Part shown: piece by piece, positions 58,608-63,026 of the stretch
Position numbering within the stretch: the stretch's first letter is position 1
Layout: every line of letters starts with the position of its first letter
Source: Candidatus Thalassarchaeaceae archaeon
GTDB lineage: Archaea > Thermoplasmatota > Poseidoniia > Poseidoniales > Thalassarchaeaceae
DNA: 64,000 bases
NCBI GenBank assembly: GCA_045568235.1
Contig: JBJLBJ010000026.1
Location: 2,103 to 66,102 of the forward strand
Direction of reading: 5' to 3'
Translations under genes and position numbers: made by a program
Notes under the pieces: model-generated
Databases searched by the model: none
The model's input: the letters and a program-made list of their open reading frames with translations, nothing else
What the model was told of the DNA's origin: nothing

Positions 58608-59621
58608 TTAACCGAAGAGGTCACCAAGTCCATCGAACCCAGTTTCCTCCTCTTCCTCTCCTTCCTCTTCAGTAGCAGGAGTTCCTGCATCTGATTCAGT
58701 CGTTTCAGAGGCCACGACAACAGCACTTGAAACAGCACCTAGTGCTACTGTTAATTCTTCATCAAGTGCTGAGGAATCTAATTGGCTCGCAAGAGCCATC
58801 ATACGCGCATTGGCACGCGTTACAAATAATTCTGCAGTTTTATCATTCACAATACCAGCTTTAACTGCTACCGCTAATGATTCACTGCTAGCTTTCGCTA
58901 GTAGGACCGGAGTAGTTGTTGTAGAGAACCAATGTGCATTGCAAGCCAAGTTGAATGCACGTGAAGTTGCAATCGAAATATCATCTTTCAGGCCGTCTAA
59001 GTCGAGATCCAAATCATCTGCAGGTAATAATAATCCTTCTTCAATAGCTCCAATTAAAATTAAACCAATTTCTATAGGATTTATTCCAAGCTTTGCTAAC
59101 ATCATACCTAAATCAGCAGACATAGGCTCTCCAGCAGATACAACTTTTGTTTCTTTTTGTATTGCTATCTTACCTTTGTCAATTTTTGCTGGAATTCCTA
59201 CAGCATTAAATTCTCCCACTAAAGGCCCTGGTGCGAATTCTGTCGGTCCGGCTGGAACAATAATATCCGAAGGTGCTAATTCACCTTCTTTTGCAGCACG
59301 TCCTTGGCGTGTTTTCTTTAATTCATCAAATAACTGATATGCATTTAGTGAATCACTGTGTACTATACAAGGTTGAGCAGCACCTTCAAACAAAACTTCC
59401 AACTCTTCAGTAGAGCGACCAGATTCTTTCCAAGCAATTCTCATCAATGTCTTTTTCGCCATTGTCATGCTAACTATGCCTTTTAACGAACTTCTCATAT
59501 CTAGCATATTCTTTGCAGGAACTCCTCCAATATCTATAATTCCGACTACACCCGGACTACTAATAATTTCTTTAAGTTCGTTAACACGCCCTTCTTTCCA
59601 AGATGCTACTTTAGGAATCAT
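58608..59621 (-). CDS. rpl10: 50S ribosomal protein uL10 (P0)
   Basis: 337 aa. It has a P0-type N-terminal domain and the C-terminus EEEGEEEEETGFDGLGDLFG. Its start overlaps the uL1 stop (ATGA). Confidence 0.92.
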   Translation of the reverse strand: MIPKVASWKEGRVNELKEIISSPGVVGIIDIGGVPAKNMLDMRSSLKGIVSMTMAKKTLMRIAWKESGRSTEELEVLFEGAAQPCIVHSDSLNAYQLFDELKKTRQGRAAKEGELAPSDIIVPAGPTEFAPGPLVGEFNAVGIPAKIDKGKIAIQKETKVVSAGEPMSADLGMMLAKLGINPIEIGLILIGAIEEGLLLPADDLDLDLDGLKDDISIATSRAFNLACNAHWFSTTTTPVLLAKASSESLAVAVKAGIVNDKTAELFVTRANARMMALASQLDSSALDEELTVALGAVSSAVVVASETTESDAGTPATEEEGEEEEETGFDGLGDLFG

Positions 59622-60265
59622 GAATTAGCAACCTCCACTTTTATTGAAGGTCCCATAGAAGTTTTAACGTAACAAGATCTAATGTTTTTGTCTCCACGAT
59701 CTAATCTCCCAATCACTCTCTTCCATATTGCTAGAGCATTAGCAGTCAACTCTTCATTTGATTGAGTTCGAGTACCTATGGCAGTGTGAAATGTTATTTT
59801 ATCTCTAGAACGAACTATTGCAGTATCTTTCAAACCTCCTGCTATCATAGCAGGATCTACTGGTGGAGGTACAGGTCGGGGCATCTTTCCACGAGGCCCT
59901 AGGACTACACCTAGGAATCTACCTACAGACCCCATATGTGGTATTTCTGACAAGAAAAAATCATATCTGTTAGCCATTTTTCTAGCTGCTTGACGTTTTG
60001 TACCCAAATCTTCGATTGTTGATGGATCAATAATTTCTAATCCGGCTGCTCTAGCCTTAGCTGCCATTTCTCCACCAGCAAACATTGCAATCTTCGGTTC
60101 TTTACCTCTCCCTGAAGGAAGTCTGACTTCTTCTTGTATTCTGTTAGAAGGATTCTTCAAATCAATATCTTTCAAAGTAAATGACATTTCTAGTGATTCT
60201 ACGAAATTTCGCTCTGGAGCACCTTCAAGTGCTTTTTGAATTGCTGTTTGTAAATTATTTTCCAT
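59618..60265 (-). CDS. rpl1: 50S ribosomal protein uL1
   Basis: The ORF is open from TTG 60322. ATG 60265 gives 215 aa (the canonical size) starting MENNLQTAIQKALEGAPERNFVESLE, with ...GPRGKMP. A GAGGTGAG SD lies upstream. Confidence 0.9.
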   Translation of the reverse strand: MENNLQTAIQKALEGAPERNFVESLEMSFTLKDIDLKNPSNRIQEEVRLPSGRGKEPKIAMFAGGEMAAKARAAGLEIIDPSTIEDLGTKRQAARKMANRYDFFLSEIPHMGSVGRFLGVVLGPRGKMPRPVPPPVDPAMIAGGLKDTAIVRSRDKITFHTAIGTRTQSNEELTANALAIWKRVIGRLDRGDKNIRSCYVKTSMGPSIKVEVANS

Positions 60266-60318: not shown

Positions 60319-60597
60319 TCAACTAAAATGTTCGCTAAATCTCCCTTCACTCATTGCATTTAATGCTTCTTTTGGTTGCATTCCTTCTACACTAACTCTC
60401 ATAGATACACATGTACCCATTACTTCACGACATCTTGCGTAAAGAGTAGAGCCGGTCAAACGTTCTTTTTGCTTCTCTGCTATCTGTTTAATTTGATCCA
60501 TTGTCAAGTTCTCAGTAGCATCCTCCCAAGACCCATTACACTTCTTTACACCAAGTGTTTGATTCACCATATGTGGTGTTTCATTCCTAGCTGACAT
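60319..60597 (-). CDS. rpl11: 50S ribosomal protein uL11, C-terminal (rRNA-binding) domain only
   Basis: 92 aa with a GGAGGT SD 7 nt upstream of the ATG. LGVKK...ENLTMDQIKQIAEKQKERL...REVMGTCVSMRVSVEGMQPKE aligns to the C-terminal half of archaeal L11 (..LGIE...GNLTLEQVIKIAKMK...KEVLGTCGSMGVTVEGKDPKE). The PPLGPALG N-terminal domain is not encoded here. Confidence 0.8.
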   Translation of the reverse strand: MSARNETPHMVNQTLGVKKCNGSWEDATENLTMDQIKQIAEKQKERLTGSTLYARCREVMGTCVSMRVSVEGMQPKEALNAMSEGRFSEHFS

Positions 60598-60682
60598 CTG
60601 TGTAACCTCCTGTGTTTGTGTCTCGCCGACCTACTTGCCCTATTTGAGATTGATGTAAAAATCAATTTAGCCGATTCCTCGC

Positions 60683-61549
60683 TTATTCAACTCTTTGTGT
60701 TACTCTGACTTGATCTGCTCGTACTGTTAGTGCAACAGGTACAGCAGCTTCGAATAATTCAACTGTAACCTCTTCTTTTGATTCAGTAACACGAATTACA
60801 CGTGCATTTTGACCTCTAAATGCTCCTCCAACAATTTCACAGAGACTACCTTCTTCTATTCCAGATGTAGCAGCCTTAGGCTCTAAGTAGGGCAATACAT
60901 CTTCAAGTGGAGATTCTCCTGGTAAAACCTTTCTACAGTTCTTTAGAGGTGTGACTCCTATCCCTACTCTGCCAATTAATTTCTCTACATGGTGTAAAGC
61001 AGATGCTTCAACGAAAATATAACCTCTCATGAAATGTGGATTTAGTACACCAAATATCTCATCTTGAATATCTTGTAGAGAACCAGTTCCTGAAAGTCTT
61101 GCTCTGATTTCTTTAGCAACATTTTGCTCTTGCCCTATTGAAGTTTTCAAGATGTAAAGATATGATGCCACATCTCCATACATTTCGGTTAATTTCGGAG
61201 TTGAATATTCTTTTTCTTTAATTCTTCCAGGATCTACCCATTCACTATTTTTGTACAATGTACTTGGAACAACTTCTTTGACTTTACATACACAAAGTAT
61301 CGGAGTAACATCTACCAGTCTATTTCCATATTCCAATCCACGTGCTTCGCCAGTGCGCACAAATTCAAAGTTCTCTCGTGAAATACCAGTACACTCCTCA
61401 ACTCTTTTTGCTACTGCATCAAGATCATCAGGATTTCCTAATCCATAGATTCCATCCCATGCGCCAGCGAAATCAGAAATTCCATCAGCTCTTTGCATTA
61501 AGAGTACTTTTTCTTCATTTCTTAGATAAACTGTAAATGATTCAGACAT
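60683..61549 (-). CDS. spt5: transcription elongation factor Spt5 (NGN+KOW) with ~130-aa N-terminal degenerate Nudix-like domain
   Basis: 288 aa. The C-terminal ~155 aa are a standard archaeal Spt5 (YILKTSIGQEQNVAKEI...RGYIFVEA...; KOW GSLCEIVGGAFRGQNARVIRV). The N-terminal part, KVLLMQRADGISDFAGAWDGIYGLGNPDDLDAVAKRVEECTGI, follows the Nudix-fold pattern with a non-canonical box. Confidence 0.85.
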   Translation of the reverse strand: MSESFTVYLRNEEKVLLMQRADGISDFAGAWDGIYGLGNPDDLDAVAKRVEECTGISRENFEFVRTGEARGLEYGNRLVDVTPILCVCKVKEVVPSTLYKNSEWVDPGRIKEKEYSTPKLTEMYGDVASYLYILKTSIGQEQNVAKEIRARLSGTGSLQDIQDEIFGVLNPHFMRGYIFVEASALHHVEKLIGRVGIGVTPLKNCRKVLPGESPLEDVLPYLEPKAATSGIEEGSLCEIVGGAFRGQNARVIRVTESKEEVTVELFEAAVPVALTVRADQVRVTQRVE

Positions 61550-61559
61550 ACTTTACACC

Positions 61560-61826
61560 TCATGCTCCTGTTAACCAATCAAAAAATGCTGGGAAAACAT
61601 TATTCATCATAGCTTGTACAACGAAACCAAATAATCCCAATATGAACATACCTATGCCACAAACTATCATAGTTTGTCTAAATTGAGCCTTTGTTGGTTT
61701 ACGTGCCATCTTTAAAATTCTTGCATATGAACCTGTTTGTAAACTTCTAACTCGGCTTTCAATATCGTCCTGAACGTCCTGAACTTTCTCTTCGAATTTA
61801 CTAACTTTGGAATTTTCGACACTCAT
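61560..61826 (-). CDS. secE: preprotein translocase subunit SecE / Sec61-gamma
   Basis: 88 aa. RILKMARKPTKAQFRQTMIVCGIGMFILGLFGFVV is the canonical archaeal SecE sequence. The gene sits between ftsZ and spt5 as in other archaea. Confidence 0.8.
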   Translation of the reverse strand: MSVENSKVSKFEEKVQDVQDDIESRVRSLQTGSYARILKMARKPTKAQFRQTMIVCGIGMFILGLFGFVVQAMMNNVFPAFFDWLTGA

Positions 61827-61916: not shown

Positions 61917-63026
61917 TTAAGAGATAAATTCTACAGTCCTACTTCTTAAATTTCTCATCTGAGTATGCATCGAAGCACCATGTATTTGTTCACTTTTTAC
62001 TCCAGTTAATACTAACAAAACTCTAATGTTATTGCCCAACGATTCATCAGTCGTAACTCCCCAAATAATTTTTGCATATGTATTAATTTTCTTTCGAATT
62101 ATATCAGCACATTTTTCTGCTTCTCCAAGAGTTAAACCGGGCCCTCCAACAACATTGATCAGAGCACCCCTTGCATCTGAAATATCCATGTCTAGTAGTG
62201 GATTCTCAATTGCTTCATTTGTAGCAATCTCTGCAGTCTCGCCTTCTCCAAGTCCAATGACTCCAATTCCTCCTCCATTACTGAGGACTGATTTTAAATC
62301 TTGAAAATCAAGATTGACTATCCCTTCTCTAGATATCATCTCAGAAACGCCTGAAATACTTCGAACTAATAATTCATCAGCCACACGAAAAGCAGCATCT
62401 AACGGTAATTGCTTAACAGTATCAATTTCCAATAATCTTTCATTTGGCAATACAATAACAGTGTCGGCAGTTTCCTTGAGTCTCTCTAATCCCCAATCTG
62501 CATTTTGTTTTCTTAGAGATCCTTCTGATAAGAATGGATAGCTAACTACTGCAATTGTTAATGCCCCAGCCTGTTTAGCTAATCGGGATATTACAGGGGC
62601 AGATCCCGTACCAGATCCACCCCCCAAACCTGCGGTAATAAACGCAAGATCGCAGCCTTCAACTTCAGTCTTCAATATTCTCTCAGACTCATATGCTGCT
62701 TGTTCTCCCTTTTCTGGATCGCCACCTGCCCCCCTGCCACGGGCTGTGCGACCAATTAGAATTTTATTTTCAACAGCAACTTTCAACAGATGTTGAGCAT
62801 CTGTATTAATTGCCATTCCTTTTACATATTCATCATCAAACAATGACTCTGCCTCAAGCCTTGCTACTGCATTACTTCCAGCACCTCCACATCCAAAGAC
62901 CCTTATCTTTGGTTGTAAAGATTTTAGTAAATCTTGAAGATTCAAATCTTCAACTGGCTCGGGAGTATTCTGAGCAGTAATTTCGTCCTCCTGAAGCTCG
63001 AGGACTCTATCGATAATATGCTTCAC
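61917..63026 (-). CDS. ftsZ: cell division GTPase FtsZ
   Basis: 369 aa with a GTG start. Motifs are GCGGAGSNAV, the tubulin signature GLGGGSGTGSAPV, and NTDAQ. Confidence 0.92.
   Translation of the reverse strand: MKHIIDRVLELQEDEITAQNTPEPVEDLNLQDLLKSLQPKIRVFGCGGAGSNAVARLEAESLFDDEYVKGMAINTDAQHLLKVAVENKILIGRTARGRGAGGDPEKGEQAAYESERILKTEVEGCDLAFITAGLGGGSGTGSAPVISRLAKQAGALTIAVVSYPFLSEGSLRKQNADWGLERLKETADTVIVLPNERLLEIDTVKQLPLDAAFRVADELLVRSISGVSEMISREGIVNLDFQDLKSVLSNGGGIGVIGLGEGETAEIATNEAIENPLLDMDISDARGALINVVGGPGLTLGEAEKCADIIRKKINTYAKIIWGVTTDESLGNNIRVLLVLTGVKSEQIHGASMHTQMRNLRSRTVEFIS

Follow-up and report, generated by a model that had tools for sequence, protein, structure and literature searches.

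Among the ribosomal proteins, uL11 belongs to the universally conserved set, and its N-terminal domain, which moves with the elongation, termination and initiation GTPases, makes up half of the thiostrepton/micrococcin site. What becomes of a ribosome whose uL11 gene encodes only the other half? This question is raised by a 64,000-nt stretch of DNA from Candidatus Thalassarchaeaceae archaeon (GenBank assembly GCA_045568235.1, contig JBJLBJ010000026.1, positions 2,103 to 66,102 of the forward strand; hereafter the window, in whose coordinates all features are given). Its rpl11 gene, located at 60319..60597 on the minus strand including the stop codon, starts with ATG and specifies a uL11 of 92 aa that consists of the C-terminal rRNA-binding domain only. 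An initial annotation, made from the letters of the window, had reported the N-terminal domain (NTD) as missing, and proposed that it had been either lost or relocated as a split gene. Here, we consider whether the short gene is real, whether its missing half is encoded elsewhere, and what this would mean for translation in the order Poseidoniales (Marine Group II).

Domain content and predicted fold of the 92-aa uL11

The Pfam family of the L11 RNA-binding C-terminal domain, PF00298, matched the protein with 36 bits (cut-off, 21.4) over profile positions 8–67 of 69, and the L11 N-terminal domain family, PF03946, had no match in the 92 residues. On NF002232, the NCBIfam model of the full-length protein, the protein scored 61.9 bits (cut-off, 162), with coverage restricted to profile positions 74–158 of 164; L11 of the sister order reaches 180.6 bits on the same model. 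As the score lies under this cut-off, the product is called 'hypothetical protein' by the NCBI pipelines. Residues 7–91 align with residues 73–158 of Pyrococcus furiosus L11P (4v6u_BH, 164 aa; E 1.7e-12), and residues 9–91 with 75–158 of Methanocaldococcus jannaschii L11 (5col_A, 161 aa). At the corresponding point, the 156-aa L11 of the sister order reads ...SVGTPPAASLVKQVLGL..., and uL11 starts with MPKPWTSELIKK in Poseidoniaceae and with MSARNETPHMVNQTLGV in the source genus, so that both begin at the inter-domain hinge. The claims of the initial annotation that the gene encodes the C-terminal domain only, that its similarity to Methanocaldococcus L11 runs from the inter-domain linker onward, and that archaeal uL11 normally measures about 155–165 aa (161–164 aa in solved chains, 156 aa in the sister order) are borne out by these data and by the structural comparison below.

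An AlphaFold2 (AF2) model built from a 24-sequence alignment (pLDDT 82.6, pTM 0.75) was compared with solved structures using Foldseek. The best match was M. jannaschii L11 in a P-stalk base/thiostrepton complex (5d8h_C; TM 0.82, root-mean-square deviation 1.7 Å over 87 columns), followed by the C-terminal domains of archaeal, bacterial and eukaryotic L11, 1hc8 and 1mms among them with TMt ~0.8. The matches include C-terminal fragments of 70–76 aa complexed with a 58-nt RNA (1hc8, 1y39), as well as the 70 residues of 1mms_B. The predicted fold of the 92-aa protein is thus, as modelled, that of the L11 C-terminal domain, in which a short sheet accompanies a helical bundle.

As reference for canonical archaeal uL11, combining PF03946 and PF00298, we took 4V6U chain BH, 5COL/5D8H and chain I of Haloarcula marismortui 1S72. 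The Marine Group II protein is like these in its position in the Spt5-L11-L1-P0-P1 series, in being single copy, in the sequence and predicted fold of its C-terminal domain and in its 58-nt rRNA target, but residues 1 to ~72, i.e. the whole NTD with its PPLGPALG motif, are absent. Other differences are the score under the NF002232 cut-off, a KCNGS loop and an SMRV motif whose residues are invariant across the C-terminal domains of the order, and lower PF00298 scores (36–41 bits in Poseidoniales vs. 64 bits in the sister order). The gene order SecE-Spt5-L11-L1-P0-P1 is the usual archaeal cluster and uL11 occupies its conserved position therein; the spt5-rpl11-rpl1 placement given by the initial annotation agrees with both the list of open reading frames (ORFs) and the Pfam-typed neighbours. 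We conclude that the 92-aa protein is a uL11 orthologue, namely a natural C-terminal-only variant with no PF03946 match and a score under the NF002232 cut-off.

The laboratory fragments known as L11-C76 (1HC8, 1Y39, 1FOW) likewise comprise the C-terminal domain alone; such fragments of 70–76 residues fold, and are RNA-bound in 1HC8 and 1Y39. The Marine Group II protein goes beyond them by the addition of the hinge and the archaeal C-terminal tail and, whereas L11-C76 denotes engineered bacterial fragments, serves a free-living lineage as its sole uL11 under purifying selection. In the literature, we found no description of a uL11 reduced to its C-terminal domain, be it from Marine Group II or from other archaea.

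Conservation of the short gene and search for the missing domain

A short ORF of this kind might reflect an assembly deletion, a miscalled start codon or the remnant of a pseudogene, and both the origin of the sequence from a metagenome-assembled genome (MAG) of 33 contigs and the 'hypothetical protein' label would fit with this. However, in 80 of 80 related loci (the best 80 of 435 species genomes encoding a relative), the ORF starts with ATG and has a length of exactly 92 aa, and a full-length rpl11 was present in none of them. The inspected set covers the single-cell genomes AG-457-A01, AG-422-I22, AG-447-I14 and AH-287-M04 and also MAGs with names suggesting long-read assembly. In 62 of these loci, a Shine-Dalgarno (SD)-like motif lies at most 20 nt from the ATG; the gap between the preceding long ORF and the ATG measures 57–86 nt (range of the 12 commonest values), and an in-frame stop codon occurs upstream of the ATG at varying distances, which likewise argues against a miscalled or truncated gene. 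A collection of 5.8 billion proteins contained 166 matching clusters, nearly all of exactly 92 aa, on contigs of up to 794 kb and carrying the names Thalassarchaeaceae, Poseidoniales or Marine Group II; the protein is found on hundreds of metagenome contigs. Within the genus, the ratio of nonsynonymous to synonymous substitution rates (dN/dS) of rpl11 was 0.06–0.12, with dS up to ~1, in the same range as for the adjacent L1 (median, 0.074), and this similarity (~0.09 for rpl11) speaks against decay. The 'hypothetical' label, for its part, is accounted for by the score below the NF002232 cut-off. Related genomes are not independent samples, and the case against an assembly artefact rests on the agreement of hundreds of independent assemblies. 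With this evidence, artefact or decay is effectively refuted already and, to judge from the genes, the 92-aa uL11 is a complete, single-copy gene under purifying selection.

Is the NTD encoded elsewhere, then? The spacer between the Spt5 and rpl11 genes (60598..60682, minus strand) is, at 85 nt, too short to hold it, and no ORF of at least 60 aa overlaps the Spt5 3′ end in another frame, the sole ORFs there having 30 and 33 aa; on both points, the initial annotation was right. In the source genome (1.41 Mb in 33 contigs, 80% complete), a six-frame search with PF03946—the check proposed along with the initial annotation—had no match at E ≤ 10, while the same domain was detected in 14 of 14 control genomes. 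PF00298 matched the source genome once, in the 92-aa ORF itself, leaving no second, full-length uL11 elsewhere in the assembly.

The same picture emerged from the relatives. Over 40 genomes from the three Poseidoniales families and 18 genera, PF03946 never exceeded its cut-off (0/40; 0/2 in family f2), and PF00298 was found in 34 of them, or in 35 of 41 with the source genome included, in open frames of mostly 92–121 aa and once of 143 aa. At class level, the NTD was found in 0/25 and 0/50 genomes of the Poseidoniales families f1 and f3, respectively, vs. 38/43 and 2/2 genomes of the sister families f4 and f5, with ~85 bits. At phylum level, considering genomes at least 85% complete, the counts were 0/24 (f1) and 0/50 (f3) vs. 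219/226 for all other Thermoplasmatota families together. The sister order is the closest relative available, and a dedicated profile was built from eight of its NTDs; across 151 Poseidoniales genomes, of which G026 and G084 each consist of a single contig, no match was better than E 0.04. The weak matches to the N-terminal profiles that were inspected proved to be noise, located in a membrane-protein gene read in a shadow frame and in a 339-aa protein that is unrelated; others fall inside L1. In sister-order genomes, a 156-aa L11 directly follows Spt5, that is, in the same position.

Absence in incomplete genomes means that the domain was not found in those searched; as the pattern is uniform and two of the genomes are single contigs, absence is the reasonable conclusion. 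Very probably, a single loss of the NTD took place in the Poseidoniales ancestor, after its split from the sister order. A split gene, whose N-terminal part would be encoded elsewhere, have diverged too far for profiles and join the ribosome separately, might be envisaged in view of a source genome that is 80% complete, of the limited reach of profile searches for a domain of 60–70 aa and of the split genes known in some archaea. Yet PF03946 yields ~80–90 bits in nearly all other sampled Thermoplasmatota and nothing over its cut-off in Poseidoniales, even the profile from the closest relatives came no further than E 0.04 in the 151 genomes, and its weak matches sit in unrelated genes, making a relocated domain very unlikely. 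Of the two possibilities left by the initial annotation, loss is hence supported by the phyletic pattern, and relocation is disfavoured by the empty profile searches.

The rRNA partner and the proposed working of the ribosome

L11 binds RNA through its C-terminal domain, which stabilises the tertiary fold of a 58-nt RNA; the NTD is mobile, makes contact with release factors and the translational GTPases, and forms, together with the RNA, the site for thiostrepton (PMC1802607). No 23S gene was found in the source assembly. The 58-nt GTPase-centre RNA (Escherichia coli positions 1051–1108) was therefore examined in 30 Poseidoniales 23S genes (L045–L074, from both large families), and compared with that of 11 sister-order genomes, two other Thermoplasmatota and E. 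coli. The element is conserved in all 30 Poseidoniales genes. The nucleotides A1067 and A1095, which face the uL11 NTD and thiostrepton, are unchanged in 43/43 archaeal sequences and in E. coli. Two substitutions, U1061G and U1083G, distinguish the order (30/30) from its sister order (0/11), of which G1061 is not unique to Poseidoniales, as one unrelated Thermoplasmatota genome has it, too. Position 1061 is a tuning point of the tertiary fold, and U1061A is stabilising (PMC1802607). A U1091:A1100 pair was dismissed as a Poseidoniales-specific change, the sister order having the same pair. Two further contigs from Poseidoniales MAGs carry a different GTPase centre, near-identical to that of E. 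coli in one (L086; G149:C25) and closer to E. coli than to Poseidoniales in the other (L087; G430:C6), and probably represent binning contamination.

In the mechanism we propose, the 92-aa protein would bind helices 43 and 44 (H43/H44) of 23S rRNA and stabilise the fold of the GTPase-associated centre, as isolated L11 C-terminal domains do bind there in solved complexes; the conservation of the target RNA in 30/30 genes is in keeping with this predicted binding to positions 1051–1108. The ribosome would then function without the mobile NTD, and factor recruitment and GTPase activation would depend on the stalk of P0 and P1, the sarcin-ricin loop and the bare rRNA loops at 1067 and 1095. No composite pocket for thiopeptides, which takes the NTD as well as A1067 and A1095, could form, and high-affinity thiopeptide binding would be lost. 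L11-deficient bacteria and yeast without both uL11 genes are viable but impaired, making a working ribosome without the NTD plausible. Likewise, the ribosomes of thiostrepton-resistant bacteria that are L11-deficient or mutated in the NTD work, as do those of uL11-less yeast, and the NTD is a determinant of thiopeptide action. In contrast to such laboratory-made and usually growth-impaired mutants, the Marine Group II variant is fixed in a whole order and has kept the C-terminal domain. Translation in Marine Group II thus probably proceeds without the half of uL11 that touches factors and thiopeptide antibiotics.

Whether anything has taken the place of the NTD is a separate matter. Its site at the GTPase centre might be occupied by some unrelated protein or by an extended neighbour, for instance P0 or aP1; such a non-homologous replacement would not exclude loss of the domain as such. 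The order-specific invariant residues (KCNGS loop, SMRV) and the fixed U1061G and U1083G could mark a remodelled interface. On the other hand, P0 is of ordinary length (337 aa) and has the usual domains, L1 is ordinary, no candidate protein was found and, given the viable L11-deficient bacteria and yeast, a replacement is not strictly needed. We regard a stand-in as unlikely, and lean, by a modest degree of belief, towards Marine Group II ribosomes having nothing in place of the uL11 NTD.

Several points weigh against the picture of a working ribosome with half a uL11. That the 92-aa protein is made and sits in the ribosome is a prediction from its gene, and we know of no cultured Marine Group II strain and no Marine Group II ribosome structure. 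As the source genome is 80% complete and without a 23S gene, the argument from absence leans on relatives. A very divergent or non-homologous N-terminal stand-in could escape sequence searches. Finally, the lower PF00298 score of the Poseidoniales C-terminal domain may point to some functional drift.

Operon context, short uL11 proteins elsewhere and implications

The rpl11 ATG is preceded at 7 nt by the SD sequence GGAGGT (60605..60610, minus strand), as the initial annotation had read it, and the predicted N-terminal peptide of the protein is (M)SARNETPHMVNQTLGVK. The neighbouring genes are all encoded on the minus strand. Downstream of rpl11 lies rpl1 (uL1; PF00687, 141 bits), which extends over 59618..60265 if started at an ATG or to 60322 if started at a TTG. 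The mechanically called ORF, from the TTG at 60322 (234 aa), has a 4-nt overlap with rpl11; more likely, translation starts at the ATG at 60265 (215 aa), with the beginning MENNLQ conserved in the genus and a gap of 53 nt after rpl11. There follow the genes for the stalk base protein P0 (uL10; 58608..59621, 337 aa; PF00466 53 bits, PF17777 68 bits), in which the archaeal insertion domain is intact, and for P1 (58280..58600), named from its position and sequence, outside the domain scan. On the upstream side are Spt5 (60683..61549, stop codon 60683–60685; 288 aa), typed by the Pfam NGN and KOW domains, SecE (61560..61826) and FtsZ (61917..63026). Pfam typing characterises both P0 and L1 as ordinary members of their families.

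The L11 ATG overlaps the Spt5 stop codon in the sister order, as opposed to the spacer found in Poseidoniales. Within this spacer, 72 Thalassarchaeaceae sequences that can be anchored on ATAGGG share the non-coding block CATCAnnnTCAAATAGGGnnAGnAGGTCGGCGnG (60622..60655, minus strand), which contains the TATA-like sequence TCAAATA (60641–60647, minus strand). Poseidoniaceae have a counterpart ~55 nt upstream of the ATG, reading ATTAAATAGGGG / gcgcgATTAAATAGGGG or ATTATATAGGGG. Downstream of the TATA-like box and ahead of the point at which transcription is expected to start, there is an invariant AGGTCGGCG part. The Spt5-rpl11 spacer had no match in Rfam, and RNAalifold applied to 70 unique spacers returned no consensus structure; on these grounds, we interpret the block as acting at the DNA level. 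It probably represents a promoter, with B recognition element (BRE) and TATA box, of the rpl11-rpl1-P0-P1 unit, which would provide the short gene with a transcription start of its own. The alternatives, a spacer that acts as structured RNA or that mimics the L1-binding strand of helix 77 (H77) of 23S rRNA, to which it bears some resemblance (GUAGGUCGGCGAGA vs. GUAGACGGGAGA), were rejected for want of covariation, structure or Rfam support.

Spt5 itself is extended. Ahead of NGN-KOW, it carries an N-terminal Nudix-like domain of ~130 aa whose Nudix box is degenerate (20.5 bits on Pfam NUDIX, just short of the cut-off of 21.1), and the TIGR00405 match (116 bits) is confined to residues 132–286. 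The extension occurs in all three Poseidoniales families and is absent from the sister order, where Spt5 measures ~180 aa; its dN/dS is 0.093 vs. 0.008 for NGN-KOW. Two order-specific changes, the Spt5 extension and the short uL11, thus adjoin in one operon.

Short uL11 proteins were also sought among 1.84 billion representative proteins. One cluster of 89-aa proteins starting at the hinge (P0223) occurs on 141 contigs of up to 448 kb, including contigs from Tara Oceans samples. Its gene on the marine metagenome contig Ga0181575_10003189 (L172:6001-6270, plus strand), which encodes the C-terminal domain only, is located behind FtsZ, SecE and an ordinary Spt5 of 149 aa, the uL11 ATG overlapping the Spt5 stop codon, and is followed not by L1 but by a convergent alanyl-tRNA synthetase gene. 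Relatives of this Spt5 bear the names Candidatus Nanoarchaeia, Woesearchaeota or DPANN. An assignment of the 89-aa lineage to Thermoplasmatota was rejected, its best match there being a full-length L11 at 48% identity. Another hinge-starting uL11, of 93 aa, comes from a Micrarchaeota MAG (P0185). The L172 and Micrarchaeota proteins are 24–29% identical to that of Marine Group II, and with such low identity probably go back to independent events. Overall, the further hinge-starting proteins comprise P0185, P0180, P0165, P0216 and P0197; in several of 138–165 aa, a low-complexity tail rich in Lys, Glu and Ala comes after the C-terminal domain.

The short gene has consequences for annotation, in that its product falls under the NCBI family cut-off and is labelled 'hypothetical protein'. 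Completeness estimates may be affected, too. For all 13 genomes of the source genus g1, these lie at 62–88%, even for assemblies of 6–10 contigs; if PF03946 is a marker gene in genome-completeness sets, as we take it to be, they may be depressed by markers, the L11 NTD among them, that the whole lineage lacks.

If the loss holds true, the uL11 NTD would be dispensable in nature, beyond sick laboratory mutants, in a very abundant order of ocean archaea. Marine Group II would offer a natural system in which to gauge the contribution of the NTD to GTPase activation, and would be predicted to be intrinsically insensitive to thiopeptides. Should there indeed be nothing in place of the NTD, the order would be a natural and abundant example of a GTPase-associated centre served by the P stalk, the sarcin-ricin loop and bare rRNA, with U1061G, U1083G and the altered C-terminal domain as compensations; together with the short uL11 proteins of the Nanoarchaeia-like lineage and of Micrarchaeota, it would represent a recurrent simplification of the archaeal ribosome.

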